Below are positions 18,272 through 40,572 of a stretch of DNA of 64,000 nt, piece after piece. Location of the stretch: the NCBI GenBank assembly GCA_964512315.1, contig CAZEIK010000002.1:45304-109303 (forward strand). Direction: 5' to 3'. This DNA is from an uncultured Candidatus Saccharibacteria bacterium (GTDB taxonomy: Bacteria > Patescibacteriota > Minisyncoccia > Phycocordibacterales > UBA5272). Numbering within the stretch: position 1 is the stretch's first letter; each line of letters begins with the position of its first letter. The notes under the pieces are model-generated. The model searched no databases. It worked only from the letters and a program-made list of their open reading frames with translations, and was not told where the DNA came from. Both the position numbers and the translations under genes were made by a program.

Positions 18272-20414
18272 TAGTGGTTGCCTCTGTTGATGTGCTAAAG
18301 CCACCAGAATAGAAAGGGCAAGAGTTATTTTGCGCCCAAGCCTGAATTGGTGTATTCCATAAGTTATACTGAGGGTCGTTATAATTAGGAGATCCACCAC
18401 CAACACCAATATCTCCTAATATTGTATGAGCTGGGTTACCTTCCCCACACCAAATACCGCGTAATATAGGTAAAGTGTTTTCATTTGTAGGAGTTGGTGC
18501 GTCAAAATACGAAATAGGGGTGTTGTTTAAAGCAACACTCATAAACTTTTTCCAAATAGGAGCAACAACCATACCAGCAACCTTTTTATCTATTGGAGTA
18601 TTATCGTTATTTCCAGCCCACATTCCAACAGCAATATCTGGAGTGTAACCAATAACCCAAACATCCTTATAGTCGTTAGTTGTACCAGTTTTGGCAGCAA
18701 CAGGCCTGTCGGGGAAATAAAGCGCGCTGTTAGCCCCAAAAGCCGGTATTCTGGCGTTGTTATCAGTTAAAACATTACTTAGTGTGTCTGTGTATTCTTT
18801 TGGCACGACATCGATAGAATTCTGTGTGTATTTCTCCAAAACATTACCATTTAAATCTTTTACCTCTAGAACAAGAGCTGGTTGGTTGTACACGCCACTG
18901 TTAGCAAAAGTCGCATAAACATTAGTTAGTTCTAAAAGAGACACCTCTCCACCACCCAACACAAGAGATAAACCAAACCTAGAACTGTCAGTAAGGCTTG
19001 TAATTCCTAAGGTTTTTGCGAAGTTTAGAGCGTTTTGAACCCCGACTAAGTATAAAGTTTTTACCGCGGGGACATTGAGTGATTGTTGCAACGCCGACCT
19101 TATTGATATTGGTCCACGATATTTACCATCATAATTCACCGGCATATAACACTGCCTTTTATCCCCACCGTTCAAAGGATTGCCGTACGCATCACAAAGG
19201 GTACTAAACTGTGTCGGTAGGTCGAATAGTGTGGTGTCAGGAGTTAACCCTTTCATAAACGCTAACAGGTACACAATAGGCTTGAATGCTGAACCTGGCT
19301 GACGTAAGGCAGTCGCTATATTAAATTGCCCATCTATTTCTTTATCAAAATAATCACGAGACCCAACAAGAGACAATACTTGCCCAGTTTTTGAGTCTAT
19401 TGCAACCAAGGCAGCATTTCGAGCTTTATATTTCTGCTCATTTTCTAAAGCACCCTCTTTTACTATTTGTTCAGCGTTCTTTTGAAGATTCCAATCTATT
19501 GTGGTAATTACTTTTAGCCCACCATTTTCAACTACCTCTTCACCATACTTACTCTCAAGATAGTCTTTGACCATAAAAACAAAATGCAAAGCCTTGGCGT
19601 TATTGGTTTCTTGGGGCAAGAAGGCGACATTCTCGTTTTTGGCTTCAGAGTATTGAGTGTCGTCTATCATTTTAAGCTCAAACATTCTAGAAAGCACAAG
19701 GTTTTTTCTCTCGTCTAGGGCGGATTTATTTTTACCGTAAGGAGAATAGAATGACGGCGCCTGTGGCATTGCAGCAAGATAGGCTGCCTCAGCAAGAGTG
19801 ACATCTTTGGCCGGCTTACCAAAATAAGACTGAGAGGCCTCTTCTACCCCATAAATAGACCCCCCATAAGGAGATTCGTTCAAATACATAGTCAAAATGG
19901 TATCTTTGTCCAGTTGTGCGTCCAACTTAACAGCCAATATCCACTCTTTTACTTTTCTTATAATTGTTTTTTGCCTATCCAACAAAGCGTTTTTTACAAC
20001 TTGTTGTGTTATTGTTGACCCACCCTGTGAGTATCCGCCTGATGCAAGGTTGGCAAGCACTGCTCTCATTATTGATTGAGGTCGTATCCCGTAATGCTCG
20101 TAAAAATGAGAATCCTCAATAGCAACAGCGGCATTTTTAATATTTAGACTTATTTGATCAGACGGAACAACGGTACGTTTGATATTCTCGTGTATATTGT
20201 AGAGCACAACTTTACCAGTTCTGTCATAAATCTTGGTAGAATTGGCTATTTTACGATTCTCAAAGTCACTAAAATCAGGAAGTTTTATTGTGGCTATCCA
20301 TACAACAAAAAGCGCAGAGGTTATAAGGGTCAACCCAACCAAGGCGTAAAAAGACTCTTTCATCATATGTGAGACAAAACGAGACCTGCGATGATTGTGT
20401 TTCGGATGGTTCAT
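18258..20414 (-). CDS. class A penicillin-binding protein (bifunctional glycosyltransferase/transpeptidase, PBP1A-like)
   Basis: N-terminal TM. GT51 motif AIEDSHFYEHYGIRP. Transpeptidase SxxK-type region (GSAFKP) and KTGT motif. Confidence 0.9.
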   Translation of the reverse strand: MNHPKHNHRRSRFVSHMMKESFYALVGLTLITSALFVVWIATIKLPDFSDFENRKIANSTKIYDRTGKVVLYNIHENIKRTVVPSDQISLNIKNAAVAIEDSHFYEHYGIRPQSIMRAVLANLASGGYSQGGSTITQQVVKNALLDRQKTIIRKVKEWILAVKLDAQLDKDTILTMYLNESPYGGSIYGVEEASQSYFGKPAKDVTLAEAAYLAAMPQAPSFYSPYGKNKSALDERKNLVLSRMFELKMIDDTQYSEAKNENVAFLPQETNNAKALHFVFMVKDYLESKYGEEVVENGGLKVITTIDWNLQKNAEQIVKEGALENEQKYKARNAALVAIDSKTGQVLSLVGSRDYFDKEIDGQFNIATALRQPGSAFKPIVYLLAFMKGLTPDTTLFDLPTQFSTLCDAYGNPLNGGDKRQCYMPVNYDGKYRGPISIRSALQQSLNVPAVKTLYLVGVQNALNFAKTLGITSLTDSSRFGLSLVLGGGEVSLLELTNVYATFANSGVYNQPALVLEVKDLNGNVLEKYTQNSIDVVPKEYTDTLSNVLTDNNARIPAFGANSALYFPDRPVAAKTGTTNDYKDVWVIGYTPDIAVGMWAGNNDNTPIDKKVAGMVVAPIWKKFMSVALNNTPISYFDAPTPTNENTLPILRGIWCGEGNPAHTILGDIGVGGGSPNYNDPQYNLWNTPIQAWAQNNSCPFYSGGFSTSTEATTTIGF

Positions 20415-20434
20415 AGTTGTGATATAGTATTTAT

Positions 20435-21625
20435 ATGCCTAATACTAACACAGACGAAACCAAGATTAAACAGCTGTTGTCAAGAGCTGTGGAGGAGATT
20501 TTTGTAAAAGAAGAGATGGAAAAAGATCTCCTGTCTGGACGCGAGCTCAGAATAAAATTTGGAATAGACCCAACGGGCCCCAAAATACACCTAGGTCGCG
20601 CTATTCCAATAAGAAAGCTTCGCGAGTTTCAAAAACTAGGACACAAAATAGTTCTTATTATTGGTGACTTTACAGCACAGATAGGTGACGCTAGCGACAA
20701 GACAGAAAAGAGGCCAATGTTAACACGCGCCCAGATAGACGAGAATTTGAAAGACTATAAGAGTCAGATAGGTAAGATTTTGGATTTAGAGAAGGTTGAG
20801 TTTGTTTACAATAACGATTGGCTTTCAAAATTAACATTTCAAGATGTCACACAACTAGCGGAATGCTTCACTGTGCAGCAAATGTTAGCAAGGAGGAATT
20901 TTAAAGACAGATTCGATGCTGGTACAGAGATCTCTTTGCGTGAATTTTTATACCCACTAATGCAGGGATATGACAGCTATGCTGTGAAGTCAGATGTTGA
21001 GATTGGTGGCTACGATCAACTTTTTAACTTAAAAGCTGGTCGCGCTATACAAGAGTTCTTCGGCATGCCAAAGCAGCACATTATGAATCTCCAAATGCTA
21101 GAAGGAACAGACGGAAGAAAAATGTCTACTAGTTGGGGTAATGTTGTAACTGTAGTAGATGAGCCGAACGATATGTTTGGTAAGATTATGTCTTTGCGTG
21201 ATGAGCTTATAATTAAGTATTTCAATCTTTGTACTGACGCAGACGAGAACCAAATTAAAAAGTACGAAGAAGATTTAAAAAATGGAGTAAATCCTAGAGA
21301 TATAAAATTTATTTTAGCTGAGGAGATAGTTAAGATGTATCACAATGAGAAGGTGGCAGCCCAAGCCAAACAAAACTTTATTGAAGTATTCCAGAACAAG
21401 GGTCTGCCAGACGATATACCAGAAGTATATGCAGAAGAAAAAGAAATGTTTTCCGATGTTGCGTTAAGGTCTGGAACAGTGGAGAGTAAGAGTGAATGGA
21501 AGAGGCTTGTTGAAGAGGGTGCTGTTAGTTATGAGAGTGGCGAAGTGTTGTCTGATTACAAAGAGTTAGCCAAAAGCGCAACATTAAAAATAGGCAAAAA
21601 AAGATTTCTAAAAGTAAGAGCTTAA
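20435..21625 (+). CDS. tyrS: tyrosyl-tRNA synthetase (class I aaRS with C-terminal S4-like domain)
   Basis: HIGH-region variant GIDPTGPKIHLGRAI, KMSTS (KMSKS) motif and a C-terminal S4-like segment. TrpRS cannot be fully excluded. Confidence 0.7.
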   Translation: MPNTNTDETKIKQLLSRAVEEIFVKEEMEKDLLSGRELRIKFGIDPTGPKIHLGRAIPIRKLREFQKLGHKIVLIIGDFTAQIGDASDKTEKRPMLTRAQIDENLKDYKSQIGKILDLEKVEFVYNNDWLSKLTFQDVTQLAECFTVQQMLARRNFKDRFDAGTEISLREFLYPLMQGYDSYAVKSDVEIGGYDQLFNLKAGRAIQEFFGMPKQHIMNLQMLEGTDGRKMSTSWGNVVTVVDEPNDMFGKIMSLRDELIIKYFNLCTDADENQIKKYEEDLKNGVNPRDIKFILAEEIVKMYHNEKVAAQAKQNFIEVFQNKGLPDDIPEVYAEEKEMFSDVALRSGTVESKSEWKRLVEEGAVSYESGEVLSDYKELAKSATLKIGKKRFLKVRA

Positions 21626-21825
21626 TACCAATCTCTGGGGTCGTCGTGAGGGAATGCTATATCCAACTCGTCATCGTCATCACTTAATATAAAAACCTCC
21701 TCCTCTTCTAGCTCAACATATCCATCATCACCAAGAGCTGCATCTAAGGCATCCGGGTTAACTGAGTCTTCATTTACAGGTTTTTCCTCTTCTTCCATAT
21801 TTGTTTTTTGATTCTTGATAAGATA

Positions 21826-22317
21826 TCAAATTGTTTTTAAATATGCAAGGGCTGCTAGTCCTGACGCCACCGCATCGTATTCATCATCTAGCCCAGTCTT
21901 AGCAACATGCTTACTAATTAGCTTAACCATTTTAATAACCTGATCCTTTTTTGCATTACCAACACCAGTCACAGCTAGCTTTATTTTCTGTGGGGTCATC
22001 TCTACGATTTTTATTCCGCGCCTAACACAAATCAACTTAACAGCCCCTTTAATCTCAGCAACATTAATAACACTCTTTGCGTTGTCGTGCATAAACACAG
22101 ACTCGACACATAATATTTCTGGGTGATATTCATCTAGAACTTTTTCAAACTCACTTATAACTTGCATAAGACGCGCCTCAAAAGTTAAAGTTTTGGATGT
22201 CTGAAAGCAGTCAGAGAATAACACGGAGTCTTTATAATTCTCTCTAACAACAACTGCGACACCAAAACGATCGAACCCTGGATCAACAGCAACCACAACA
22301 GTTTTATTTTGCTGCAT
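21826..22317 (-). CDS. ruvC: Holliday junction resolvase RuvC
   Basis: N-terminal VVAVDPGFDRFGVAVV. 163 aa. Overlaps the ruvB stop. Confidence 0.85.
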   Translation of the reverse strand: MQQNKTVVVAVDPGFDRFGVAVVVRENYKDSVLFSDCFQTSKTLTFEARLMQVISEFEKVLDEYHPEILCVESVFMHDNAKSVINVAEIKGAVKLICVRRGIKIVEMTPQKIKLAVTGVGNAKKDQVIKMVKLISKHVAKTGLDDEYDAVASGLAALAYLKTI

Positions 22318-23287
22318 AGTCTTTACCTTTCTGTGTTAGTTGTCTTCCGCGTGTGGTTTTTTCTATTAGACCCATTTGTAAGAGATACGGCTCTAATACA
22401 TCTTCTAGCGTACTCTCTTCCTCTGAGAGTGCCGCCGCAAGAGTAGAGAGTCCAACCGGGCCGCCCGAGAATTTATCTAATATAGTTTTTAAATACTCTC
22501 TTTCGTTGTGACCCAAACCTTCCTCATCAATTTCTAAAAGGTCTAAAGATTTTTTTACTGTAAAAACATCAAGAGGCAACTCATGAACCTCAGCATAATC
22601 ACGAGCACGCTTGAGGTAGAAGTTGGCAATACGTGGGGTGAATCTCGAGCGCTTAGCTATTTCGAGGGCCGCCTCGTGAGATATTTTTGCTCCAAGCTTC
22701 TCTGAGCTCTTCTCCACAATTTGCGCCAACTCTTCTAAGGTGTAGAATTGTAAACGGTATACACCACCTGAGAATCTTGATCGCAGTGGTGACGAGAGTA
22801 GCGACACACGTGTTGTGGCACCAACAAGAGTAAATGGCGGTATGTCTAATTGTATACTTCTTGCGGCTGGACCTTTGCCGATAATAATATCAAGAACACC
22901 TGATTCCATTGCAGGATATAGCACCTCCTCAATCATTTTGTTAAGGCGGTGTATCTCGTCGATGAACAGAACATCATGCGGTTGCAAGTTGGTTAATATA
23001 GCAGCCAAGTCACCAACTTTTGTAAGAGTGGGTCCAGATGTTACTTTTATATTTGTATTAAGTGTTCTTGCTACTATGTGAGCGAGAGTTGTTTTACCTA
23101 GTCCTGGTGGACCATATAACAAAATATGCTCAGGGGGCGTTCCGCGTGAGAGGGCTGCGCGTAAGAGTACGTCTATATTTTTTTTAATCTGGGTCTGACC
23201 AATATAATGTTCAAAAGTTGTCGGGCGAAGGCTCGAATCTAGATGTCTACTCTCCTCATTTTTAACTTCTTCTTGACCACTTGACAT
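22304..23287 (-). CDS. ruvB: Holliday junction branch-migration ATPase RuvB
   Basis: LLYGPPGLGKTTLAHIVA Walker A, FIDEIHRL Walker B, arginine finger region. Confidence 0.95.
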   Translation of the reverse strand: MSSGQEEVKNEESRHLDSSLRPTTFEHYIGQTQIKKNIDVLLRAALSRGTPPEHILLYGPPGLGKTTLAHIVARTLNTNIKVTSGPTLTKVGDLAAILTNLQPHDVLFIDEIHRLNKMIEEVLYPAMESGVLDIIIGKGPAARSIQLDIPPFTLVGATTRVSLLSSPLRSRFSGGVYRLQFYTLEELAQIVEKSSEKLGAKISHEAALEIAKRSRFTPRIANFYLKRARDYAEVHELPLDVFTVKKSLDLLEIDEEGLGHNEREYLKTILDKFSGGPVGLSTLAAALSEEESTLEDVLEPYLLQMGLIEKTTRGRQLTQKGKDYAAK

Positions 23288-23478
23288 AGAATTTAATTAT
23301 GTTATAATTGTCCACAGTTCAATCTTTTAAAAAGCTCGTCAATCTTTAAGCAATCGGGTTCGCCCATACTTCTATTACGAAGGACGTTTTGGTTCTAAAG
23401 CATTTGCTTTACTACTGCGGCTATCCTTATGTAGGAAATATTCTTCACCAAGGGGTTGTTTAAAGATTAATGAGCTTT

Positions 23479-25173
23479 TTATTTTTCGTACAGATCAACA
23501 ACTGTTCCCAACTCCTCTAGCGAGGTGACCCCGTCTAGTACCTTCATTATACCATCTTCTCTCATTGAGGGTATCATTTGTTTTGCCGCTACAGCTTTTA
23601 TCTCTCTTTCACCAGCACCACCAACAGCAGCAGTCTCTATTTCTCCTGTCATTTGTATTGCTTCGTATATACCAGTTCTACCTTTGTAACCATTGTTGCA
23701 CTTATCACAACCCCCATCCTTGGCTACAAATATTTGATATATTTTTTGTGGTGGATGAGCTACGTCTTTACCTTCGGAGACCATGTTACCAATTACATCA
23801 GTTATTAATTTTGACTCTTCTGCTGTTGCGTCTCTTCTTTCTTTACAATTTACACACAACTTCCTACACAATCTTTGTGCCATTACAAGAGTAAGCGACG
23901 AGGCTAATGTCTTAGCATCAACCCCGAGGTCTATCATGCGAGGTATTGATCCTGCTGCCGAGTTGGTGTGTAGGGTAGAGAGTACTATGTGACCAGTTAG
24001 TGCCGCGCTCGCTGCTACCTTTGCTGTGTCTTCATCACGGATCTCACCCACCATAATTACATCTGGGTCTTGGCGTAATGCAGCACGCAGTCCGAGTAGA
24101 AAAGTGTAATCTTTTTTCTGGTCGACTTGTGTCTGGGTTATTCCGTCTAAGTGATACTCGATAGGGTCTTCGATAGTGATTATTTTTTTCTCAGATGTGT
24201 AGACTTTACGAAGACAGGCATACAAAGTTGTAGACTTACCTGATCCAGTTGGTCCAGTAGTTAAGACCATACCATAAGGCTTCTTTATTGCGCGGTCGAG
24301 TACACCTAACACCTTTTCATTCATACCTAACTGGTCAAATCCAACATTAGCAGCCTTAGGGTCCAAGATTCTCATTACATAATTTTCACCATAATTGCCA
24401 GGCACAACCGACACACGCACTTCTATTTTGTCTCCGCCCCAATCAATTTCAAATCTTCCATCTTGCGCAGACTTTTGTATAGAGAGCTTCATCCCGGCGA
24501 GCAGTTTAAGACGACTATTAAGTAAATTAAAAGTCTTTTCATCAGTGAAGAATATATCTTGTAGGGCGCCATCTATACGATATCTAACTTTCACAGTGCC
24601 ATCTTCTGGTTCTATATGTATATCGCTCGCGGTGAAGTGTATGGCACCAACTAGTGACATCTCAATTATTTTCGAAACTCTCTCTCTGTCACTATTCATA
24701 ATAACTTGTTCCAACTTATCCCTGAATGTCTGCAGGTTGCTAACATCCTCCAGCAACTCCCTTAAGTGAGACTCGCTTAGGTTGACCAACCCCCTTTCTA
24801 CAACCGTCCCAGCATCCAGGTCAGCGTAACGCGCCCACACTTTTTTAACTGACGTATCAGATGCAATATATATTATCGGTTTATCACCTTTGTTAGAAAG
24901 CTTCGCCAAGTACTCAACAACATCGTCACGAGTCGGGTCTGATATTGCTATGTGAAGCTGTCTACCAACCATTTTAAATGGAGCAAAGGAGTATTTTTGT
25001 GCATCTTCTAAGGGGAGTGCTGCTAGCGCATCCATTTCAGGAGACTTAATACGAAGGTCTATGTAAGGGAGACCTGTTTGGGCAGCCAGGAACTCCGCCT
25101 CTTTTTCTTCATCTTCCGCAGCCAATTTGTTCAGGCTTGTTTTGATTTTTAGCTCTGCAATATCATCGATCAT
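23479..25173 (-). CDS. pilB: type II secretion/type IV pilus assembly ATPase (GspE/PilB family)
   Basis: Walker A LTTGPTGSGKSTTLYACL, Asp/His boxes and a C-terminal tetracysteine (CxxC...CxxC). 564 aa. Confidence 0.85.
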   Translation of the reverse strand: MIDDIAELKIKTSLNKLAAEDEEKEAEFLAAQTGLPYIDLRIKSPEMDALAALPLEDAQKYSFAPFKMVGRQLHIAISDPTRDDVVEYLAKLSNKGDKPIIYIASDTSVKKVWARYADLDAGTVVERGLVNLSESHLRELLEDVSNLQTFRDKLEQVIMNSDRERVSKIIEMSLVGAIHFTASDIHIEPEDGTVKVRYRIDGALQDIFFTDEKTFNLLNSRLKLLAGMKLSIQKSAQDGRFEIDWGGDKIEVRVSVVPGNYGENYVMRILDPKAANVGFDQLGMNEKVLGVLDRAIKKPYGMVLTTGPTGSGKSTTLYACLRKVYTSEKKIITIEDPIEYHLDGITQTQVDQKKDYTFLLGLRAALRQDPDVIMVGEIRDEDTAKVAASAALTGHIVLSTLHTNSAAGSIPRMIDLGVDAKTLASSLTLVMAQRLCRKLCVNCKERRDATAEESKLITDVIGNMVSEGKDVAHPPQKIYQIFVAKDGGCDKCNNGYKGRTGIYEAIQMTGEIETAAVGGAGEREIKAVAAKQMIPSMREDGIMKVLDGVTSLEELGTVVDLYEK

Positions 25174-25221
25174 GCTTATATTATAACCAATAAAATCTAT
25201 ATAAATATAATCTTTTACACC

Positions 25222-25249
25222 TTGACAAAAGTATTATTTAGTGTATACT
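25222..25249 (+). promoter_or_regulatory. near-consensus sigma70-type promoter (TTGACA-N16-TATACT) upstream of the lipoprotein gene
   Basis: TTGACA at 25222-25227 and TATACT at 25244-25249 with a 16-nt spacer. RBS AGGAGA precedes the ATG at 25316. Confidence 0.4.
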
Positions 25250-25315
25250 AGTGTTAGTAATCTGATCATTCATTTTGCGGTGAGATAATATCAACAACCC
25301 GCCAAGGAGACGCGA

Positions 25316-25624
25316 ATGCGTTCAATTTTCATTATCGCAGGACTCGCTTCGCTCGCCTTATCAGGCTGTGTTACGATTGTTGCGCGAGAACAACCGGCGC
25401 AACAGGCGGTCTATTACCGCCAAGCGCCAGCACCTGTTGTAAATGGCCTTCCTCAAGGTTGTCAGCGCACCATTTACGGTACGCACTGCAATCAGGCGGA
25501 TGGTTACATCCTCCAGGCGCCGCAAGTGCCAGGCCGCACGGCTCAGCCGGGTGCCGGTCAGCCGACTTGCCCCTACGGTGGTACGCTACGCACAGTCAAC
25601 GGACAACTCTTGTGTGTCCGCTGA
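25316..25624 (+). CDS. small Cys-containing lipoprotein (high-GC island gene 1)
   Basis: Signal peptide with lipobox LALSGC, AGGAGA RBS, roughly 62% GC codon usage with strongly GC-biased third positions. Confidence 0.55.
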   Translation: MRSIFIIAGLASLALSGCVTIVAREQPAQQAVYYRQAPAPVVNGLPQGCQRTIYGTHCNQADGYILQAPQVPGRTAQPGAGQPTCPYGGTLRTVNGQLLCVR

Positions 25625-25706
25625 CACCAACTTTCACTTTTAGGGTACCGGGACTGTGATCACTCCCAAGCGCTCGCTTATCCTTCCCCGGACGAGCTGC
25701 TGATAT

Positions 25707-25741
25707 TCCCTGAACGGACCCCTGTGGTCCGTTTTTCTTTT
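25707..25741 (+). terminator. rho-independent terminator
   Basis: Stem ACGGACC-CCTGT-GGTCCGT followed by TTTTTCTTTTT. Confidence 0.5.
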
Positions 25742-25776
25742 TATATAAAGTAATAAAAAATATTAAATGTATAGTC

Positions 25777-25804
25777 TTGACAAAAGATTAAAAACATGTA
25801 TACT
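25777..25804 (+). promoter_or_regulatory. second copy of the near-consensus promoter (TTGACA-N16-TATACT)
   Basis: TTGACA at 25777-25782 and TATACT at 25799-25804. Shares CTTGACAAAAG.ATT...GTATACT with the promoter at 25222. Confidence 0.4.
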
Positions 25805-25905
25805 TATACACAGAGGTTTTGAGAAATTATCTTGAATAAATTAGGGTAATTTACAAAACTTTACTTTCACAACCAACGCGGCAGCCCGCCGCAAAAGGAA
25901 AATGT

Positions 25906-26862
25906 ATGGCAGCAGCTGCCCCCCGCCCCGTCGCCCCTCGAGTTCGTCCCGCTGCGCATCGCCGCAGTTGGACGAAGTGGCTCAAGTATGCAGGATACAC
26001 CATCTTCGCTCTGCTTGCAGCTGCCTTTTTACTCTGGCTCGCGGCATTGATGTTCTCACCGGTTATCAGCTGGTGGAACACGTCGTCGTTCAGCGCATGG
26101 TCTTCGGATCGTGCGTTGGCGTCAGCCCGCGACAACTTGAGTGCAAATCGCAAAGTCGCGAACAACAGCGGTCGCATCAAGGCGATCGACAGCAAAACCC
26201 CTGATCTCGTCGACTCCGCCAACACGGCAGGCGAGCGAGCTGAAGGAAAAACCTTAACTCGCCAGCTGGCGAGAGAGCGTGCCGCTACGGTTCGAGATCA
26301 GGCGGCAGAGATGAAAAACTCAGCCGCGGTATCTCGTGCCGATGCAGCCGAGATAGCCCTCTCTGCTTGTGACGACGGTGATGATGCTTGCATTGAGCGA
26401 GCCCTCAAGCTTCTGCGCCCACCGTTCATGGTGAAGCAGGAAATGGATGAGCTCGCGGCTGCGAAAAAAGCAGCCGAAGATGCGAAAGCTGCCCAAAAGG
26501 TGGCTGAGGATGCTCTTGCGAAAGAGAAAGCCAAGCCAGCAAAGGTGGTTCGTATTCCTGGTCCTACGGTGTACTTGCCGCAACCAGTGGCCACGCCACC
26601 CTCAGCAGCTCTGGCAATCGTCCCGTCTCGCCCAACTACTACACCAGCAGCACCGTCCAGCGGAGCTGTGCCCTGCACATTTAGCCGGCACGGTGTCGCG
26701 ATCGAGACGTTCACCGTCTCGTCTGGAGAGGAATGCAAGAGAGCGACGTTCGAAAAGAACGAAGCCTTCATCTTCCGTGAGTGCGTCCAAAAGTGGGGGC
26801 AAGACCACTGCATCAAGCAGCGAGATATTCGCAAGCAGGCGCAAGGGCAAAACTCTTGGTAG
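25906..26862 (+). CDS. Ala-rich single-pass membrane protein (high-GC island gene 2)
   Basis: 318 aa. TM helix YAGYTIFALLAAAFLLWLAALMF, then charged Ala-rich helical region, a Pro-rich segment (PQPVATPPSAALAIVPSRPTTTPAAPSS) and a Cys-containing C-terminal domain. GC-rich. Confidence 0.5.
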   Translation: MAAAAPRPVAPRVRPAAHRRSWTKWLKYAGYTIFALLAAAFLLWLAALMFSPVISWWNTSSFSAWSSDRALASARDNLSANRKVANNSGRIKAIDSKTPDLVDSANTAGERAEGKTLTRQLARERAATVRDQAAEMKNSAAVSRADAAEIALSACDDGDDACIERALKLLRPPFMVKQEMDELAAAKKAAEDAKAAQKVAEDALAKEKAKPAKVVRIPGPTVYLPQPVATPPSAALAIVPSRPTTTPAAPSSGAVPCTFSRHGVAIETFTVSSGEECKRATFEKNEAFIFRECVQKWGQDHCIKQRDIRKQAQGQNSW

Positions 26863-26879
26863 GAATTTCCCTACCGCAA

Positions 26880-26912
26880 AGGTCCGTCGTAACGACGGCC
26901 TTTTTTTATTTT
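26880..26912 (+). terminator. rho-independent terminator
   Basis: GGTCCGTCG-TAA-CGACGGCC hairpin followed by TTTTTTTATTTT. Confidence 0.5.
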
Positions 26913-26973
26913 GACAACAAAACTTTTTGTTGTTAGTGTTTAGTAGTCTTTAACTATACAAGGAGCAAGAGAC

Positions 26974-27444
26974 GTGACGTTCTTTAAAACAATTTTTATG
27001 TTGGCAAGCTTTCTGCTTGCCGGTGTGGCTGCCTCTCAGGTCTGTGAGTTGAGTAAGGGTTGCAATGACCCTAACAGCATCGGTGCCAGGGTTACCTTGC
27101 CCGGTGTTGGTGTTAAGGCGCCGCCACCAGCAAACACAGCTTCTGTCACGCAGAATATTGGTGTAGGTGTTGACGTCAAAATCATCCCCGAGATCACCTC
27201 CGTGACGGTGGACAGCTCTCGTTTGCGAGGTATCTGCATCTCGTGGGAAAATGGCGAGCCGTGTCCGGCAGCAAAGGCAATTGACTCACCGGTCAGGGAG
27301 GTAAAAGCTTCGGAACAAAAACCGAAACAACTCAAACCCTCAAAACAGGCAAGTCGTTCAAAAGTTGCAACGGTGACTATTCCGGCTTCCGAATATGAAA
27401 AACTCGTCAAGAGTTGCAGCAAACCAGCAGCACAAAAACCTTAA
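26974..27444 (+). CDS. secreted Cys-motif protein, paralogue A (high-GC island gene 3)
   Basis: GTG start 8 nt after AGGAG. Signal peptide FMLASFLLAGVAAS. Motifs C-x-L-S-K-G-C-N-D-P-N and ISWENGEPC are shared with the next gene. Confidence 0.5.
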   Translation: MTFFKTIFMLASFLLAGVAASQVCELSKGCNDPNSIGARVTLPGVGVKAPPPANTASVTQNIGVGVDVKIIPEITSVTVDSSRLRGICISWENGEPCPAAKAIDSPVREVKASEQKPKQLKPSKQASRSKVATVTIPASEYEKLVKSCSKPAAQKP

Positions 27445-27459
27445 TAGGAGAGAAGTGAG

Positions 27460-27879
27460 ATGAGAAAGCATTTGTTGTCGTTATGGCTCTTTCTTTCGGT
27501 GTTGGCAATGCCAATCTTTGCAGAAGAAAGGGAAGCGGGACTGTGTCAGGGTTGCAAAGACCCTAACGCAATCTCAACAACCATAAAACTGCCCACACCT
27601 AGTGTGCAGTCGCCACCACCAGTTACATTGCCGCCCGTGTATCAAGACGTGTATCAGCCGGTTGTGCAGCGTATACACCCTCAGATCGTTTCTGTGCAGG
27701 TGGCGGAGACGGTTGGTGTTGTGTGTGTTAATTGGCAGAACGTGCCTTGTTCTTGTGCTGTTGCTCCGGCACCAGACATGCGCAGGTGCGCCATCCATAA
27801 AGGGCGTCCAGATTTAGGGTTTTTCCCAGGTTTGTTTTCCCAAAATGGCTGCGAGGAAGAGCGGGCACGAAGAAAATGA
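27460..27879 (+). CDS. secreted Cys-motif protein, paralogue B (high-GC island gene 4)
   Basis: Signal peptide LLSLWLFLSVLAMPIFA. Shares C-QGC-KDPN-I...LP...V..PPP...I.SV.V...C..W.N.PC with the preceding gene. Confidence 0.5.
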   Translation: MRKHLLSLWLFLSVLAMPIFAEEREAGLCQGCKDPNAISTTIKLPTPSVQSPPPVTLPPVYQDVYQPVVQRIHPQIVSVQVAETVGVVCVNWQNVPCSCAVAPAPDMRRCAIHKGRPDLGFFPGLFSQNGCEEERARRK

Positions 27880-27905
27880 TGCTTGACCGGCGGTTTTCCG
27901 CCAAG

Positions 27906-27936
27906 ACCCAGACGCTGTTTGTCTGGGTTTTTTGTT
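27906..27936 (+). terminator. rho-independent terminator closing the GC-rich island
   Basis: CCCAGAC-GCTGTTT-GTCTGGG followed by TTTTTTGTTT. Confidence 0.5.
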
Positions 27937-27983: not shown

Positions 27984-28661
27984 ATGCAAGAAATTCAACC
28001 CAAACAACCAACAACACCAGATCAAAACTTTAAAGAAAGTATATCTGGTATTTGGGACGATGGTTCAAGGGACGCAAGAGAAAGCTCTAAAACAAAAAGC
28101 TTCCTTGGCGCTGCGGCATTGGGTATTTTGGCTGCAATATCTCCAAACAAACAAGCTGATGCTCATAATTTAGATACACAGTCCCAGAACACAACAACTA
28201 TAAGGGAGGGGGTAAGTGAAATGGTTGACGGATATAAAATATTTAATAATCTGTCAGATGCAGAAACAAAATATAATAACGCAGAAAAGGATATAAGATT
28301 TGAAGGTAAAAAGGGGTTCGTTTTCTATACACCAGCTGTGACAGGTGAGAATAGTGTTTATTTTGTTAAAAAAAGTAAACAGCCAGGGGTTCGTTTTGAA
28401 ATAGGCAAGCATGGCAAGAGGGTTGCCCTCATGCCGGATGAAAAATTGATGGATTTGCCACAAGACACTATAGTTCAAGCTGATATTGTTGGTGGCGTTG
28501 GTATTGTAATACTAGAAAAAGGTGCAGAAATGGTTGTTAAGAAATTTATAAGAGATGGCAAAGAGGTTTGGGATGTGGAGGAGGTCGCGGCCTGTAACAA
28601 TAAGATATACAAAATAAAGAAAATGTGCCCACCTTGCCCAACAGGACAACAGTGTAACTAA
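27984..28661 (+). CDS. hypothetical protein (host-like AT-rich composition)
   Basis: 225 aa. Weak N-proximal hydrophobic segment. C-terminal KKMCPPCPTGQQCN. Confidence 0.45.
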   Translation: MQEIQPKQPTTPDQNFKESISGIWDDGSRDARESSKTKSFLGAAALGILAAISPNKQADAHNLDTQSQNTTTIREGVSEMVDGYKIFNNLSDAETKYNNAEKDIRFEGKKGFVFYTPAVTGENSVYFVKKSKQPGVRFEIGKHGKRVALMPDEKLMDLPQDTIVQADIVGGVGIVILEKGAEMVVKKFIRDGKEVWDVEEVAACNNKIYKIKKMCPPCPTGQQCN

Positions 28662-28670
28662 CTTGACATC

Positions 28671-31232
28671 TTGTCAAATATAGATTATAATATGAAAACC
28701 CTAAAAAGTGTAATAAATAAAGGAAATATGAAAAAAATATTATTTAGTTTAATTGGTTTCTCGATGCTTGTTTCTGGGTTTTCTTTTGTAGTGTTTGCCC
28801 AGGATTGTTCTGATTGTGGATATAACTACACCGACGAATATAATGGACCTGGTTATAATTACGGATACAACTATACCGACGAGTATCAAGGGCCAGGGTA
28901 TAATTATAATTTTAATAATTCGTGGGATACAAATACGCAAATAAATTGTACTTCTTGTGGTTTGAATTACAACTATACCGATGAATATCAAGGACCAGGT
29001 GGTTACGGATATAATTTTACAGACAGTTACCCTGCACCAACAACACCAACTAATACTGGGGGGATATATGTTGGTGACTGTAGTTATACTAACGATTGCT
29101 ACACACCACAGACTACAACATATGTACCGACATATACGAACACTACTACATATGTTCCTACTTATACCAATACATATGTTCCGGTATATACAAACGGTAG
29201 TACATATTATGGTACTTATTACACCCAACCTACTTACACCAATACTTATAATCCTGTATACACGACATGTCCTTCGAATGCTTACTGTCCACCAACAACA
29301 ACGCCAGCTCCTGTATACCGCGTTCCAACCAACTCATATCCACCTTCTACAGTAACAACACCTAGCAATAATTCTAGCTATTGGAATTATAACTACAACA
29401 GTACGACCAACACTAACACAACAACTAATACTAATAATAGTGTTACATACGGTCCAGCTTACACTTATACAAATAACACTTGCGCAGGAACAAATAACTG
29501 TAATACAACAGTTAACAACACAACTAACACAACAAATACAACAGGAAGCAATAATGTAAATTATTATTATGGTAACACCACAAACCCAACGCCTGTATGT
29601 ACCAATGGTGCGACCAATTATCCAGGATGTACAATATGTCCAACAGGTCTTGTTTACAGTAATGGTTATTGTATAACTAACATTACTACTAATAACTGTC
29701 CTACTAATTACTATTGGAATGGAACAAGTTGTGTACCACAAACTAGAACATGTCCGAATGGAACAGTGGTGAGTATATGGGATGTTTGTCCAAATCAAAC
29801 ACAAACATGTTGGAATGGAACAGTTATACCAGTATCGTCAGTATGTCCTTCTCAATACAAAACATGTCCAAACGGAACAGTGGTACTAATAAGCCAGCAA
29901 TGTTACAAGACATGTTCTAATGGAACAACGGTACCTGACACACAAGTGTGTTACAGAGTGTGTCCAAATGGGCAATCTATACCGGAGACACAATATTGTC
30001 CATCGTATAACAATTATCCAACAGTAGACATTAACGCTAACCCGAGCGTGATAAGCCGTGGAGGTAGCACAACATTAACTTGGACAAGTCAGAACGCTTC
30101 ATACTGTACTGCATCTAATGGCTGGTCAGGAAGTGTTAACCTGTCAGGATCAACACAGAGAGTGAATGTCTTAGATGCTACAACTTATTCTATTAGATGT
30201 TGTAACTCTCAGAATCAATGTGCAACAGACAGCACAACAGTGAATGTTACTCAGCCATTACCAACATCACATCGCGTGGTAACAACATCAGCAACAGGCA
30301 TAACAAATACTAGTGCTCGTTGTAATGGTGTTGGAATTATTTCAAACGGAGTTGTATCTAACGGATGGTTCGAGTACGGTGAGACCACATCGCTAGGCAA
30401 AGTAACTAACAGTGCCTCAATCGGCAATCAACCATCTTCACCTTTCTCTAACACTATTAATAACTTAAAACCAAATACTACATATTATTGTAGAGCGGTA
30501 ATGAGTAATGCTAATGGTACATATAGAGGTGAGATAGTCTCGTTCAAGACAACTGGTTCAGTTATTAACTATGTGCCAGTAACGCCAACAAAAACTCCAA
30601 ACAAAACAGTCGTTGTTTGTACTGACGAAACAGGAACAAAAGAGACTTTAAAAGAAGGAGAGAAGTTGATGACTATAACTTTAGACAAAAGATCAGGTAA
30701 CACAACACCGGGATCTACGGTTGATTATCGTGTGCATTATCTGAACACAAGTAAGATCAAGTTAAGTAATGCAACGGTCAAAGTTGTAATACCTAGCGAG
30801 ATGGAGTTCGTATCTAGTAATCGTGGTATGTATGATGCAGACACAAGAACTGTAACAGCAGACCTAGGCACTGTGGGTGCTGGATCCTCAGATGACTTGA
30901 TCGTCAGAGTAAAAGTTAAAGATAATGCCGAGACTAACAAGTCAGCAGTAATGAGTAGCTATATTTCATACGACGCATTAGACCAAAAAGGCCAAACAAT
31001 TCGTGATGAGAACACTTCTTATGTAATCAGCACAATAACCAAAGCTGAGCAGAATAATAATGTTTCAAATACAGACAATAATAATTCTGCACAAAAATCA
31101 ACACAAACAGATAGATCGTATTTGCCTAATACAGTTCTAGAGTGGCTAGCAATAATCGCATTAATATTCGTTCTGATTGTCTTAGGTAAGGCAATCTGGA
31201 CAGGATTAAAAGGCGAGGAGCACAGTCACTAG
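28671..31232 (+). CDS. large repetitive Cys/Asn/Thr/Tyr-rich cell-surface protein with FN3-like and DUF11-like domains and a C-terminal membrane anchor
   Basis: Signal or TM at the N-terminus. Tandem NYTDEYQGPG repeats, TYVPTYTNT repeats and at least 5 C-P-N-G-T-V-V...C repeats. WFEYGETTSLG...TTYYCRA (fibronectin-III-like) and DYRVHYLNTS...TVKVVIP (DUF11-like). C-terminal hydrophobic helix LAIIALIFVLIVLG. Confidence 0.7.
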   Translation: MSNIDYNMKTLKSVINKGNMKKILFSLIGFSMLVSGFSFVVFAQDCSDCGYNYTDEYNGPGYNYGYNYTDEYQGPGYNYNFNNSWDTNTQINCTSCGLNYNYTDEYQGPGGYGYNFTDSYPAPTTPTNTGGIYVGDCSYTNDCYTPQTTTYVPTYTNTTTYVPTYTNTYVPVYTNGSTYYGTYYTQPTYTNTYNPVYTTCPSNAYCPPTTTPAPVYRVPTNSYPPSTVTTPSNNSSYWNYNYNSTTNTNTTTNTNNSVTYGPAYTYTNNTCAGTNNCNTTVNNTTNTTNTTGSNNVNYYYGNTTNPTPVCTNGATNYPGCTICPTGLVYSNGYCITNITTNNCPTNYYWNGTSCVPQTRTCPNGTVVSIWDVCPNQTQTCWNGTVIPVSSVCPSQYKTCPNGTVVLISQQCYKTCSNGTTVPDTQVCYRVCPNGQSIPETQYCPSYNNYPTVDINANPSVISRGGSTTLTWTSQNASYCTASNGWSGSVNLSGSTQRVNVLDATTYSIRCCNSQNQCATDSTTVNVTQPLPTSHRVVTTSATGITNTSARCNGVGIISNGVVSNGWFEYGETTSLGKVTNSASIGNQPSSPFSNTINNLKPNTTYYCRAVMSNANGTYRGEIVSFKTTGSVINYVPVTPTKTPNKTVVVCTDETGTKETLKEGEKLMTITLDKRSGNTTPGSTVDYRVHYLNTSKIKLSNATVKVVIPSEMEFVSSNRGMYDADTRTVTADLGTVGAGSSDDLIVRVKVKDNAETNKSAVMSSYISYDALDQKGQTIRDENTSYVISTITKAEQNNNVSNTDNNNSAQKSTQTDRSYLPNTVLEWLAIIALIFVLIVLGKAIWTGLKGEEHSH

Positions 31233-34950: not shown

Positions 34951-35000
34951 CAAAAGACGCCCTGGCGTCTTTCTCTGTGTTCACAATTTTTACAAAATTG

Positions 35001-35073
35001 TGCCCCCAGCAGGATTCGAACCTGCGACCATCTGCTTAAAAGGCAGTTGCTCTACCGACTGAGCTATAGGGGC
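35001..35073 (-). tRNA. tRNA-Lys (anticodon UUU)
   Basis: Cloverleaf GCCCCTATAGCTCAGTCGGTAGAGCAACTGCCTTTTAAGCAGATGGTCGCAGGTTCGAATCCTGCTGGGGGCA. Anticodon loop CTTTTAA. Confidence 0.85.
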
Positions 35074-35357
35074 GATTGCGATATATTATCATGTTTTTCG
35101 GTATTTGTCATTTCTGATTTGACAAACACTTAATAAGGAGTAGAATTTTGTTAGGAGCTGCGGACGAGGAGGAGACCCCGCCACGTTTACGGCTTGTTAC
35201 TCGGCCTCAATTGCGACACTGTTGATTCAAAAAACCTCTCGCAGAGCAGACGCAGAGGAGTCAAAACTAACTATGGATTACGTTGAGCAACACTGCTGAG
35301 AACCCAGCCGACCCGAGAGTCGGCTGGCCACAACCCGGACCATCAGGCCCGGTGTTT

Positions 35358-36271
35358 TTATTTCTGGCAATTGGGGCAGAATACTGTAGTGCGGCCAGAT
35401 ATAATCATTTTTTCTAAAACACTTCTACATCTCACACATTTTTCTCCAGCTCGGCCGTACACTTTGTGTTCACGTGCAAAGTTACCACGACTGCCATCAG
35501 CTAGTAGATAGTCCGATATAGAAGATCCGCCTAGGTCTATTGCTCGCTGAAGTATTGAGATTATATTTTTATAAATAAGAGATATCTCTTGCTTACTCAA
35601 TGTCTTACAATTCCTATCGGGCCTAACCTTAGAAGCAAAACATACTTCATCTGCATATATATTGCCACACCCAACCACAACAGACTGCTCGAGTAGCACC
35701 GTCTTAATGGCTTTGTTTTTTTTAAAATATTTTCTTTAAAGTGGTCTAAAGTAAAGTTTGCGTCAAATGGTTCGAGGCCTATTTTATCGAAATGTTTTTG
35801 GCTTATTGCTTCTTGCTCACTTTTGTAATGCAAGACATAGCCGAATTGTCTGACGTCATTGTAGTATAAGTTGCCACGGTCTAACTCGAATATTATGTGA
35901 GTATGCTTGTGGGGCAGTGGCTGCCTGTACGACTCCTCTATCGGGTGGCCACCAGTCACTATGTCATTTTTGGTTTTGTTATTGGTTTCGTCTACGTAAA
36001 CAAGTTGCCCGGTCATTTTTAAATGAATTAGAACAACATCACCTTCTGTTGTTTTTATTATTAAGTTTTTGGCACGACGAGAAACAGAGTCTATGGTTTT
36101 ACCTTCTAAAAGTTCTTCAAAGTTTGTGGCTTTTATGTTGCTTGCCTTTCTGATTGTTCCAGATCCTGATACTATTTTTTTATTTTTTACAGTGACTTTT
36201 CTGATGATTCTCTTTTTAAGAACTTTGTCTAAACCTTTTCTTAGTGACTCTACTTCAGGTAGTTCCGGCAT
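35358..36271 (-). pseudogene. mutM: formamidopyrimidine-DNA glycosylase (mutM/fpg) interrupted by a frameshift
   Basis: ORF 35597-36271 gives the MPELPEVE... N-terminal half. ORF 35358-35699 in another frame gives the H2TH and zinc-finger half (GNIYADE...CxxC...CPNCQ). The frames switch near a T8/A8 homopolymer at about 35708-35720. Confidence 0.75.
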
Positions 36272-36273
36272 GT

Positions 36274-37506
36274 TTATGCTTGAGTAGACAGATACCTGTC
36301 TAACTCTTCTCTTGCTATACGCGCATCACTCCAAGGCTCCTTTTTGCCGTCAGCTCGCATAATGTATGGGTCGGTGCCTTTGCCTGTTATTAGAATTGTG
36401 TCGCCGGATTCAGCTTTTGATATAGCTAATCTTATAGCCAGCCTTCTATCTTGCTCAATTATTGGAGTATGAACAGTCACACCACTCGCAACATCGTTAA
36501 TAATCTCCATAACATCATCATCATAAGGATCTTCATCTGTTACTATTATTGTGTCGCAGTATTTATCCGCTAATTCACCAAGCTTAGGTCTTTTTGATTT
36601 ATCTCTACCACCACCACAAGACCCAAGTATAGCTATCTTTTTGCCAGGATAGGTCTTGTATAACTTCTCAAGGCTTTCAGGTGTATGAGCATAGTCAACA
36701 ACCACGCGGAAGCTTTGTCCGGCATTAACCTCTTCCACTCGCCCAGGGACCACAGTTAGATGCATTAGCGCTGAAGATATTTTATCTTCAGATATTCCTA
36801 GACTACGCGCAAATGTAGCCGCTGCCAAAGCGTTAACTTTGTTGAACTCCCCAGGCAGTGATATTTTTATGTCAGTAGCATCTTTTTCATAATAAGGTAT
36901 ATTGTGTTCTACGTTGTATATTAAAAAGTGAGGACCATTTTTGTCAGTGACATTTGCTATTATGCGGCGATTCTTTTTGCTTGACCTCGCAACAGATCTG
37001 GCTATGCGTAACTTGGCATCACGGTATTTCTCAAATGACCCATGCGACTCGATGTGCTCAGGTGTTAAGTTGGTGAATATTAGAGTGTTGAGTGAGGTAA
37101 AAGCGTGGCGCCAGAATTTTGACCCCTCGCTTGTAGTCTCTACTATTGCGAATTGGCACCCAGCATCAACGGCCTCGCGCAAGAACTTTTGTACGAAGAA
37201 TCTTCCTGGCATAGTCATCTTGTATAAGTTAGACTTGTTGTGGTCAGCTATTTTGAAACGTATTGTAGAGAGTATTGCAGTCTTGTATCCAGCTTCTTCT
37301 AATATTGCATTCACGAACTCTGTGGTTGTGGACTTGCCTTTGGTCCCAGTTATTGCAACTACATGTATTTTCCTAGCGGGGAAGCGATACATAACAGCTC
37401 CAACAAAAGACAACATAAGGTGATATGTCGGTTGGAAAAATTTATATACTTTTCTAGGTATCAACTTTTCTGTTCTGCGCAAAACTTTTTCTAATACTTT
37501 ATTCAT
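36274..37506 (-). CDS. Mur ligase family protein (MurE-like, short N-terminus)
   Basis: P-loop VVAITGTKGKSTTTEF, DYAHTPESLEKL and C-terminal LITGKGTDPY, which are Mur ligase central and C-terminal domain features. Assignment within the family is uncertain. Confidence 0.65.
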   Translation of the reverse strand: MNKVLEKVLRRTEKLIPRKVYKFFQPTYHLMLSFVGAVMYRFPARKIHVVAITGTKGKSTTTEFVNAILEEAGYKTAILSTIRFKIADHNKSNLYKMTMPGRFFVQKFLREAVDAGCQFAIVETTSEGSKFWRHAFTSLNTLIFTNLTPEHIESHGSFEKYRDAKLRIARSVARSSKKNRRIIANVTDKNGPHFLIYNVEHNIPYYEKDATDIKISLPGEFNKVNALAAATFARSLGISEDKISSALMHLTVVPGRVEEVNAGQSFRVVVDYAHTPESLEKLYKTYPGKKIAILGSCGGGRDKSKRPKLGELADKYCDTIIVTDEDPYDDDVMEIINDVASGVTVHTPIIEQDRRLAIRLAISKAESGDTILITGKGTDPYIMRADGKKEPWSDARIAREELDRYLSTQA

Positions 37507-37515
37507 CTCTCTATT

Positions 37516-38133
37516 CTACTTTGTCTTGGATAAAATTTGAAGAGCCTCTCTAATGATCTCATTCATTGCTCCAGACGGTGATATATTGGTTAATGCTGAG
37601 GTAATATCTTTTTGATTGTAACCCAAGGTCTCAAGGGCAAGTCTCGCGTCACGCATAGCGTCAGTCTCATCTTTTGCGGCTTGATCCAAGTTGAATGAAT
37701 TCTTTAGCTCCAGTATTAACTTTTCTACAGTTTTCCTTCCTACACCAGGAACCTTGGGGAATAGGTCCACATTTGCAGATGCGATGGCTCTTATGATTGT
37801 GCTCGGTGTTGCTACTGACAGTATTCCTAATGCTGATTTAGGTCCCACACCAGAAACACTTATTAATTTTCTAAATAGCTGCCTCTCATTATCGTCAAAG
37901 AATCCGAATAGTGATATCTGGTCTTCGCGTACATGTGTATGAACGTATAATTCAATACTTGCGCCTGGCTGCAGAGCAATTAGGCTCGCTAGTGGAAGGT
38001 TGACTTCGTATCCTATGCCGCCCTGTACTATTAATATCTTGCTTTCGTCTATCAGTTTTACATCGCCAGCGAGGTATCCTATCATCCTTTGATTATAACA
38101 CAAATCTGTGGTATCATTGTCCCCATATGGCAA
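37516..38133 (-). CDS. ruvA: Holliday junction DNA helicase RuvA
   Basis: MIGYLAGDV...IVQGGIGYEVNLP N-terminal OB domain, HhH region (GVGPKSALGILS). 205 aa. Confidence 0.85.
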   Translation of the reverse strand: MPYGDNDTTDLCYNQRMIGYLAGDVKLIDESKILIVQGGIGYEVNLPLASLIALQPGASIELYVHTHVREDQISLFGFFDDNERQLFRKLISVSGVGPKSALGILSVATPSTIIRAIASANVDLFPKVPGVGRKTVEKLILELKNSFNLDQAAKDETDAMRDARLALETLGYNQKDITSALTNISPSGAMNEIIREALQILSKTK

Positions 38134-38390
38134 TTACCAAATCAGCAAAAAAAGCTCTTCGTGTAAGCGATCGTAAGAAGGTTGTAAATGACCGTCTATC
38201 GAAAACTATGAAAGAGGCTGTAAAAACAGTTCGCGCTAAAGTTCAAAAGTCTGATGCTTCTGCAAAAGACAGTCTTTCAAAAGCCTTCAAAGCTCTAGAC
38301 AAAGCAGCAAAGAGGGGAACAATTAAACGCGGAACAGCAGACCGCAAGAAGTCACGTCTTGCTAAAGCTGTAGCTAAGGTTTCTAAGTAA
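38127..38390 (+). CDS. rpsT: 30S ribosomal protein S20
   Basis: MAITKSAKKALRVSDRKK... basic alpha-helical 87-aa protein. Confidence 0.85.
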   Translation: MAITKSAKKALRVSDRKKVVNDRLSKTMKEAVKTVRAKVQKSDASAKDSLSKAFKALDKAAKRGTIKRGTADRKKSRLAKAVAKVSK

Positions 38391-38429
38391 ATTTAAAAGA
38401 ACGTCGACCGACGGGTCGGTGTTCCATAC

Positions 38430-38501
38430 GCTCTCGTAGTTCAATGGATAGAATTCAGGTTTGCGGTACCTGCGATGTAGGTTCGATTCCTACCGAGAGC
38501 A
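38430..38501 (+). tRNA. tRNA-Arg (anticodon read as GCG)
   Basis: GCTCTCGTAGTTCAATGGATAGAATTCAGGTTTGCGGTACCTGCGATGTAGGTTCGATTCCTACCGAGAGCA. Acceptor, D, anticodon (CAGGT/ACCTG) and T stems all pair. Loop TTGCGGT. Confidence 0.7.
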
Positions 38502-38536
38502 CTAAAAATTAAAGAAAATCAAACATGGTTTTCAAT

Positions 38537-38581
38537 TGAGTGAAGTGACTATATTTTGTGACCGATTCCTACCGAGAGCAC
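38537..38581 (+). repeat. conserved tRNA-associated element, truncated copy C (ends in a copy of the tRNA-Arg 3' end)
   Basis: GAGTGAAGTGACTATATTTTGTGACCGATTCCTA is 36/37 identical to copy B. Terminal CGATTCCTACCGAGAGCAC duplicates tRNA 38483-38501. Confidence 0.6.
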
Positions 38582-38606
38582 GTTCTAGTGAGATATACTA
38601 AATATC

Positions 38607-39179: not shown

Positions 39180-39208
39180 CGTTTATTATATTTATAAGTG
39201 ATATAAAT

Positions 39209-39961: not shown

Positions 39962-39975
39962 GTGTGTAGTATACT

Positions 39976-40440: not shown

Positions 40441-40478
40441 AAAAAAACTAATATACGTGCTAGAATACTGTCTTATAA

Positions 40479-40565: not shown

Positions 40566-40572
40566 TAAAATC

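Follow-up and report, generated by a model that had tools for sequence, protein, structure and literature searches.

A tandem pair of exported cysteine-motif paralogues in an uncultured Candidatus Saccharibacteria bacterium: a possible surface or host-interface factor

ESAT-6/CFP-10 (WXG100) proteins are adjacent, co-transcribed distant paralogues of about 100 aa, which are exported by a type VII system, carry no signal peptide and no conserved cysteines, and fold as a helical hairpin with a W-x-G turn. Class IIb two-peptide bacteriocins are likewise encoded by two adjacent small genes with exported products, the peptides being 25-60 aa long with double-glycine (or short Sec) leaders and GxxxG motifs, and are accompanied by an adjacent immunity gene and an ABC/C39 exporter. 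In toxin-immunity pairs, a toxin domain is matched by a non-homologous immunity protein that is usually cytoplasmic or located in the membrane. The SSCPs (small secreted cysteine-rich proteins) that symbionts and pathogens produce, such as the effectors of fungi and oomycetes, form a generic eukaryotic class defined by its properties and not by homology, namely a Sec signal peptide, a mature size of 10-15 kDa, few invariant cysteines, fast divergence, lineage restriction, tandem duplication, and no detectable homology to known domains. To our knowledge, host recognition and attachment by Saccharibacteria and other CPR epibionts are largely unexplained, and most of the candidates are unannotated envelope proteins. 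In the cultivated species Southlakia epibionticum, a Tn-seq study described envelope-associated host-interaction proteins of this kind (PMC10633639).

The locus described here lies in a stretch of 64,000 nucleotides (the window) from an uncultured Candidatus Saccharibacteria bacterium (contig CAZEIK010000002.1). The original prediction had placed two tandem ORFs at 26974-27444 and 27460-27879, and both were found at these positions in the ORF list. The two genes, named A and B, and the elements assigned to them are as follows.

26911-26939, + strand: promoter-like element of A-B, TTGACA (26911-26916), a 17-nt spacer and TAGTGT (26934-26939)
26961-26965, + strand: ribosome-binding site (RBS) of A, AGGAG, 8 nt ahead of the GTG
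26974-27444, + strand: gene A, 156 aa, GTG start
About aa 1-21 of A, + strand: signal peptide, judged by eye from the sequence
27043-27264 (Cys24 to Cys97 of A), + strand: core of A, C-x5-C...C-x8-C
aa 98-156 of A, + strand: Lys-rich tail of A, pI 10, net charge +8, with a fifth Cys at position 148
27447-27451, + strand: RBS of B, AGGAG, inside the 15-nt spacer between A and B
27460-27879, + strand: gene B, 139 aa, ATG start
aa 1-21 of B, + strand: signal peptide, judged by eye from the sequence
27544-27750 (Cys29 to Cys97 of B), + strand: core of B, from the sequence alignment
3′ of the core of B, + strand: tail of B, C-x-C, then C-A-I-x-K-G-R-P-D-L-G-F-F-P-G-L-F and a final Cys
27903-27931, + strand: intrinsic terminator of A-B, a 12-bp stem followed by a T-run

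A and B are true paralogues. They are aligned by BLASTP over 92 aa with 34% identity and 53% positives (E=3e-14). By Smith-Waterman the pair scores 136, where shuffles of B (n=2000) give 30 +/- 5, which corresponds to z of about 19-21. None of the 2000 shuffles reached the score of the real pair, with or without the signal peptides, and the relationship thus passed the comparison with shuffled controls that had been proposed together with it. Kinship with the neighbouring genes isl1 and isl2 (see below) or with the adjacent 225-aa protein was rejected by BLASTP and hhalign (probabilities of 0.3% and 2%). One A-type and one B-type gene are present in four of four genomes, which indicates that the duplication predates the divergence of the species examined. 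Beneath the GCNDPN motif, 23 of 26 nucleotides are identical between A and B; a nucleotide-level element at this place was rejected, and the conservation of both Cys motifs is ascribed to the protein, because synonymous positions are free to vary among the members of the family.

The start of A requires some comment. Its GTG is aligned with an ATG at the same position in the L011 and L077 orthologues, behind the same AGGAG, and is therefore regarded as the correct start, so that the NCBI model P0001 (148 aa) lacks N-terminal residues. A and B form a two-gene operon; its promoter, RBSs, and terminator recur across four related genomes of Candidatus Saccharibacteria. Since the spacer between them is short and holds no terminator, the two genes are probably co-transcribed. 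L011, L077, and L001 have both promoter hexamers conserved 5′ of their A orthologues; the element had been missed by the consensus scan because its -10 hexamer matches the consensus at only 3/6 positions. In L001, the RBS of the A orthologue is a weaker AGGAAG. A hairpin and T-run equivalent to the terminator were found 3′ of B in L013, L001, and L019.

With regard to the proteins, the predicted signal peptides on both A and B agree with what had been expected from the ORFs. By eye they are of the Sec type, comprising a basic n-region, a hydrophobic core of 12-15 residues, and a small-residue cleavage site that is placed 1-7 residues ahead of the first Cys. The mature proteins measure 113-135 aa (about 135 for A and about 118 for B). 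The two proteins share a core of ~72 aa with four invariant cysteines. Its N-terminal loop, C-x(2-5)-C, lies within [QK]-G-C-[NK]-D-P-N-[AS]; a Pro-rich stretch (L-P...V...P-P-P) and a hydrophobic, strand-like I-x-S-V-x-V follow, and the C-terminal loop is C-x-x-W-x-N-x(1-2)-P-C, with its cysteines spaced by x(7-8). Ten aligned family sequences agree without exception at the four Cys, at one G and one D, and at two P and two V. The shared pattern on which the original prediction was built is thus real and extends to a wider family, but two of its details need correction: the spacing given as C-x(2,4)-G-C is actually C-x-G-C in B (LCQGC), and the W and N of C-x-x-W-x-N are poorly maintained, being absent from conservation in the most distant members. 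In A-type proteins, the fifth Cys lies within a motif that closes the Lys-rich tail. In B-type proteins, the C-x-C comes directly after the core, and the C-A-I-x-K-G-R-P-D-L-G-F-F-P-G-L-F segment ahead of the last Cys is strikingly conserved.

The number of cysteines in the mature protein is five in five A-type members and in P0011, and seven in five B-type members and in P0009, where P0009 and P0011 are distant members assigned to neither type. The count is therefore odd in 12/12 full-length members, which represent few independent lineages (roughly eight). With five cysteines in every A-type and seven in every B-type protein, one thiol per protein would be left unpaired. Two AlphaFold2 runs, based on alignments of 5 and 9 sequences, gave no confident fold (pLDDT 41.6 and 48.5), so that the domain picture presented here is drawn from sequence patterns alone. 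Several familiar modes of surface localization were considered and rejected. The lipobox L-[AS]-[GA]-C is absent from the end of both signal peptides, which argues against bacterial lipoproteins, the neighbouring isl1 product being one that does carry a lipobox. A sortase-anchored surface protein would have a C-terminal LPXTG, a hydrophobic segment, and a basic tail; A and B both lack LPXTG, and their tails are hydrophilic. The prepilin motif G-F/M-T-L-x-E is absent from the N-termini of A and B (MTFFKTIFMLASFLLAGVAAS and MRKHLLSLWLFLSVLAMPIFA), and these do not have the class III signal peptide (G followed by F-x-x-x-E) of type IV pilins or pseudopilins, on which a prepilin peptidase acts.

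The A/B family is a very rare orphan, encountered in a single narrow clade and on a handful of short metagenomic contigs. Among 185,579 GTDB species genomes, the sole match was a MAG of an uncultured Candidatus Saccharibacteria bacterium, whose locus is syntenic with the window: the genes for beta-clamp, PBP, TyrS, RuvC, RuvB, and PilB are followed by four unannotated genes, a 230-aa gene, a giant DUF11/CLIPPER protein, TsaE, and PolA. Two indexed searches of 5.8 billion proteins returned 4 and 8 clusters (about ten altogether), and nine matches came from an exhaustive HMM scan covering 1.84 billion representatives. Seven of these are credible; the spurious ones, P0007 and P0008, are long proteins with repeats whose similarity is limited to short stretches that are Pro-rich or of low complexity. 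The A-B pair occupies the same place in four related genomes (the window, L011-L014, L077/L078, and L001-L010), and the distant members P0005 and P0009-P0012 lie on contigs of <1 kb. On one of the contigs, L018, an ORF resembling a signal peptide (MKKTFRYFIAA) begins 13 nt after an A-type gene, with 11 codons visible before the contig ends, which suggests that the tandem layout may be old. No relatives were detected by scanning JGI metagenome contigs and IMG/VR viral contigs with the family alignment, by tblastn of A and B against phage and plasmid records, in Pfam, NCBIfam, PHROGs, or PADLOC, or by a profile search of PDB sequences. The family matches none of the described ones, but its general type, small Cys-containing proteins that are exported, is a familiar one and abundant in CPR genomes.

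A separate observation concerns P0010 (136 aa; L017 90-674) and P0012 (192 aa; L018 322-900), which represent one gene apart from an in-frame TAG in P0010 at a position occupied by Lys in P0012 (GPF*PAAVKK vs GPFKPAAVNK). The Lys-rich tail continues in frame beyond it, and the TAG may represent a truncated allele, a sequencing error, or read-through.

A and B are under relaxed yet purifying selection and evolve faster than their housekeeping flanks. In comparisons with a close relative (L013/L011), dN/dS by the Nei-Gojobori method reaches 0.45 in A, 0.24 in B, and 0.19 in isl2, as against 0.03 in PilB and 0.09 in RuvB. Relative to the more distant L001, amino acid identity is 39% for A and 60% for B, with 76-89% for the housekeeping flanks. 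The indels comprise whole codons, which, together with dN/dS of 0.24-0.45 (<1), argues that A and B are real coding genes.

The pair is the 3′ half of a block of four genes at about 25250-27900. Its other genes, designated isl1 and isl2, and their signals are given below.

25222-25249: promoter of isl1
25316-25624, + strand: isl1, 102-aa lipoprotein with lipobox L-S-G-C and Cys-bounded modules that vary between genomes
25712-25734: terminator of isl1
25777-25804: promoter of isl2
25906-26862, + strand: isl2, 318 aa, N-terminal membrane anchor and a conserved WWNTSSFSAWSSDR motif
26884-26898: terminator of isl2

The remainder of isl2 comprises an Ala/Lys-rich helical (coiled-coil) region, a Pro-rich linker, and a C-terminal domain with four Cys, and its family (P0013-P0016) is likewise restricted to this lineage. 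The block has a GC content of 0.5-0.59, compared with about 0.39 around it. With GC3 of 0.48-0.60 against a mean of 0.36 over the 69 ORFs of the window, its genes are the only clear outliers in that set. When conditioned on amino acid composition, the GC3 excess remains at z of 3.7-9.1 (4.8 for isl1 and 9.1 for isl2), and the same value is about 0 for PilB, NusG, L11, and trigger factor. High expression found no support as its cause, since NusG, L11, and trigger factor have no such excess and the codons preferred in the island (ACG, ATC, CTC, CCC, CGA, and TGC) are unlike those of bulk or highly expressed genes. The spacers inside the island retain the native AT-rich composition (GC 0.30-0.39) and native-looking promoters, and the coding-only pattern recurs in the syntenic relative L001. 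Distant members of the family on other contigs are also GC-rich genes with AT-rich upstream flanks, so that the bias goes along with coding DNA. The island borders show neither an integrase nor a tRNA nor flanking repeats, and the island is syntenic in 4/4 related genomes, including relatives with saturated synonymous sites. Together these observations speak against a simple insertion of recent date. Close relatives without the island, sought via PilB in the JGI set, were not found: only one close PilB locus was recovered (the L010 contig), and the other 55 PilB loci are <=47% identical and have no A/B family member nearby. The island may have arrived long ago from a very GC-rich donor and ameliorated in part, or its composition may be due to selection on codon usage.

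The genes around A and B encode envelope proteins, including PilB, the lipoprotein isl1, the membrane-anchored isl2, and an 853-aa DUF11/CLIPPER protein. Among the neighbours, Pfam and NCBIfam matches were obtained for PilB, RuvB, RuvC, DUF11, and PolA only, and none for the island proteins. The proximity to pilB may be incidental; the gene lies on the opposite strand beside ruvB/ruvC, with no other pilus genes nearby.

Some further features of this neighbourhood were observed. The isl1 gene of L011 (6039-6422) encodes two C-x(~16)-C modules around a conserved GLPxGCxRT[IV]YGxHCxQADGY core; the first module is missing in isl1 of the window (25316-25624) and the last in that of L001 (7759-8187), whose lipobox is L-Q-G-C, and no isl1 gene was called in L077/L078. 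L011 (1-8424) is a mosaic when compared with window 20400-27600 and L001, in that it shares 98.8% (RuvC) and 94.5% (RuvB) amino acid identity with L001, and its PilB (97.7%) and island genes are window-like. The switch point lies near window 23000-23100; either two lineages have undergone homologous recombination, or the metagenome assembly is chimeric. The 225-aa protein downstream of B (27984-28661) ends at aa 214-225 in M-C-P-P-C-P-T-G-Q-Q-C-N, which is conserved in 4/4 orthologues and resembles the mature N-terminus C-P-P-G-Q-G-C-N-D of A/B, the similarity being non-significant by hhalign (E=0.022, 10 columns). The DUF11/CLIPPER protein (28671-31232, 853 aa) contains 33 cysteines and Tyr/Asn/Thr-rich GYNYTDEYQGPGYNY repeats, and it bears a membrane anchor at its C-terminus. 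Its listed TTG start is overlapped by a perfect sigma-70 consensus (TTGACA-17-TATAAT, 28663-28691), and its true start is probably the Met of MKKILFSLIGF near 28728, because the L001 orthologue begins with MKKTLL.

Elsewhere in the window, a type IV secretion-like cluster spans 9481-13142, with a VirB4/TraG P-loop ATPase at 9481-11289 and, at 12291-13142, a T4SS pilin domain fused to a VanY D-Ala-D-Ala carboxypeptidase; several ORFs without a Pfam match occupy 2909-9476 upstream of the ATPase. Seven tRNA genes (Lys, Arg x2, Ser, Val, Leu, and His) are spread over 12 kb among small genes at 35000-46854. The 156-aa ORF at 40540-41010 probably starts further downstream than listed, because the listed start overlaps tRNA-Ser (40479-40565).

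Taken as a small duplicated family of exported Cys-motif domains, as originally predicted, A and B are supported by their homology, their export signals, and their relatives. As to function, we tentatively favour the reading that they are a lineage-specific, fast-evolving, disulfide-stabilised heteromeric factor at the cell surface or host interface of an epibiont. Briefly, the four invariant cysteines would form two disulfides after export and clamp both ends of the small domain. Such bonds fit an exported protein, with Cys4 metal binding as the alternative. The subfamily-specific tails would then serve attachment: the polycationic tail of A (net +8) could bind anionic wall polymers of the cell's own surface or the host's, and the strongly conserved hydrophobic motif in the tail of B (GRPDLGFFPGLF) could dock to a conserved partner. 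The unpaired thiols would join A to B by an intermolecular disulfide, yielding a covalent heterodimer. The cysteine counts hint at this bond as the simplest use of the spare thiols, and homodimers or linkage to a third protein would fit equally. The pair would act with isl1, isl2, and the large surface protein rich in Cys that is encoded next to the island. The term effector, one of the roles named by the original prediction, is possible if taken loosely to mean a host-interface factor.

The main rival takes A and B as structural parts of the cell's own envelope, that is, wall or matrix proteins under weak constraint with no role in host recognition. It draws on the same evidence for export and surface location; in addition, dN/dS is below 1 throughout with no sign of positive selection, and all the neighbours are envelope genes. 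We consider it unlikely, though worth serious attention, as a general component would be expected in more Saccharibacteria than the one narrow clade in which the family occurs, and a tail as strongly conserved as that of B points to a specific partner. A second question is whether the cysteines form disulfides at all or instead coordinate a metal (Cys4 Zn or similar), which would make A and B exported metal-binding or redox modules. Many habitats of Saccharibacteria are anoxic, and disulfides are less favoured there. Moreover, two plus two cysteines at the ends of a short domain resemble a knuckle-type site, and B of the window clade has C-Q-G-C, a CxxC. Zinc knuckles usually have CxxC, however, and the spacings observed here, x5 (x2 in one clade only) and x7-8, are atypical; CxxC is not conserved across the A/B family, and neither Pfam nor PDB gave a zinc-ribbon match, so that a metal site appears improbable.

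The composition of the island raises another alternative, in which the four genes are cargo gained by horizontal transfer from a donor of higher GC, perhaps an actinobacterial host. A and B would then do whatever they did in the donor, and any link with epibiosis would be coincidental. The GC3 values, their persistence after amino acid conditioning, and codon preferences that differ from bulk and highly expressed genes all speak for it. On the other side are the lack of a donor homologue in the 5.8 billion proteins and 185,579 GTDB species genomes, the borders without traces of integration, the native spacers and promoters within the block, the AT-rich flanks of the GC-rich distant members, and synteny in relatives whose synonymous sites are saturated; we regard mere cargo as distinctly unlikely. 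Also suggested was a bacteriocin or an immunity pair, in other words a two-component secreted antimicrobial or toxin-immunity system acting against competitors or the host. Tandem small exported Cys proteins do superficially resemble two-peptide bacteriocins, and lineage restriction and fast evolution would suit such a role, yet neither proposal found support. The mature proteins of 113-135 aa have Sec leaders without a double-glycine; the annotated neighbourhood is devoid of ABC exporters, C39 peptidases, immunity-like proteins, and toxin domains; PADLOC, Pfam, and NCBIfam gave no matches; and the two proteins are homologues that are both exported, unlike a toxin and its immunity protein. An antimicrobial role is accordingly judged highly improbable.

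Returning to the favoured surface or host-interface factor, its interest lies in a cleanly defined operon that is conserved yet fast-evolving, with two Cys loops and one spare thiol per subunit. The defined operon and the simple Cys feature make A and B amenable to tests of heterodimer formation and cell-wall binding. A bolder version, in which an A-B disulfide heterodimer is a determinant of host specificity and the distinct four-gene cassette has its GC3-rich codons actively maintained or repeatedly recombined between lineages, seems a long shot; if true, the cassette would be a swappable host-interface module in CPR bacteria. The coding-only GC3 anomaly is a second small puzzle, with ancient transfer set against codon-usage selection. 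For the present, A/B is one among many orphan families of secreted proteins in CPR bacteria, and its importance is modest.

Compared with the systems introduced above, A and B differ from class IIb bacteriocins in size and leader, and also in having no GxxxG motif, no adjacent immunity gene and no C39 ABC transporter. They were not accepted as a toxin-immunity or polymorphic toxin system either, being a homologous pair in which both members have signal peptides, and Pfam, PADLOC, and PHROGs searches were empty. With ESAT-6/CFP-10 they share the adjacency and co-transcription of distantly related exported paralogues of similar size, and a heterodimer is proposed for A/B. Membership in WXG100 was rejected, as there is no Pfam WXG100 match, Sec leaders and four invariant Cys are present, and no FtsK/EssC-like gene is adjacent; nor is a helical hairpin predicted in the low-confidence AlphaFold2 models. 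The S. epibionticum proteins resemble A/B in that they come from the same phylum, are exported or located in the envelope, have unknown folds, and lie among pilus and surface genes, and a role in the epibiotic lifestyle was inferred for them (PMC10633639). No sequence relationship with A/B was found, and the published genetics is not directly applicable, since the A/B family was detected solely in a single uncultured clade and on a handful of short metagenomic contigs. The SSCPs are eukaryotic and A/B comes from a CPR bacterium, so that the likeness is a resemblance only, but it covers each of the properties listed for that class at the outset, from the Sec signal peptide, mature size, and few invariant cysteines to fast divergence, lineage restriction, and tandem duplication.
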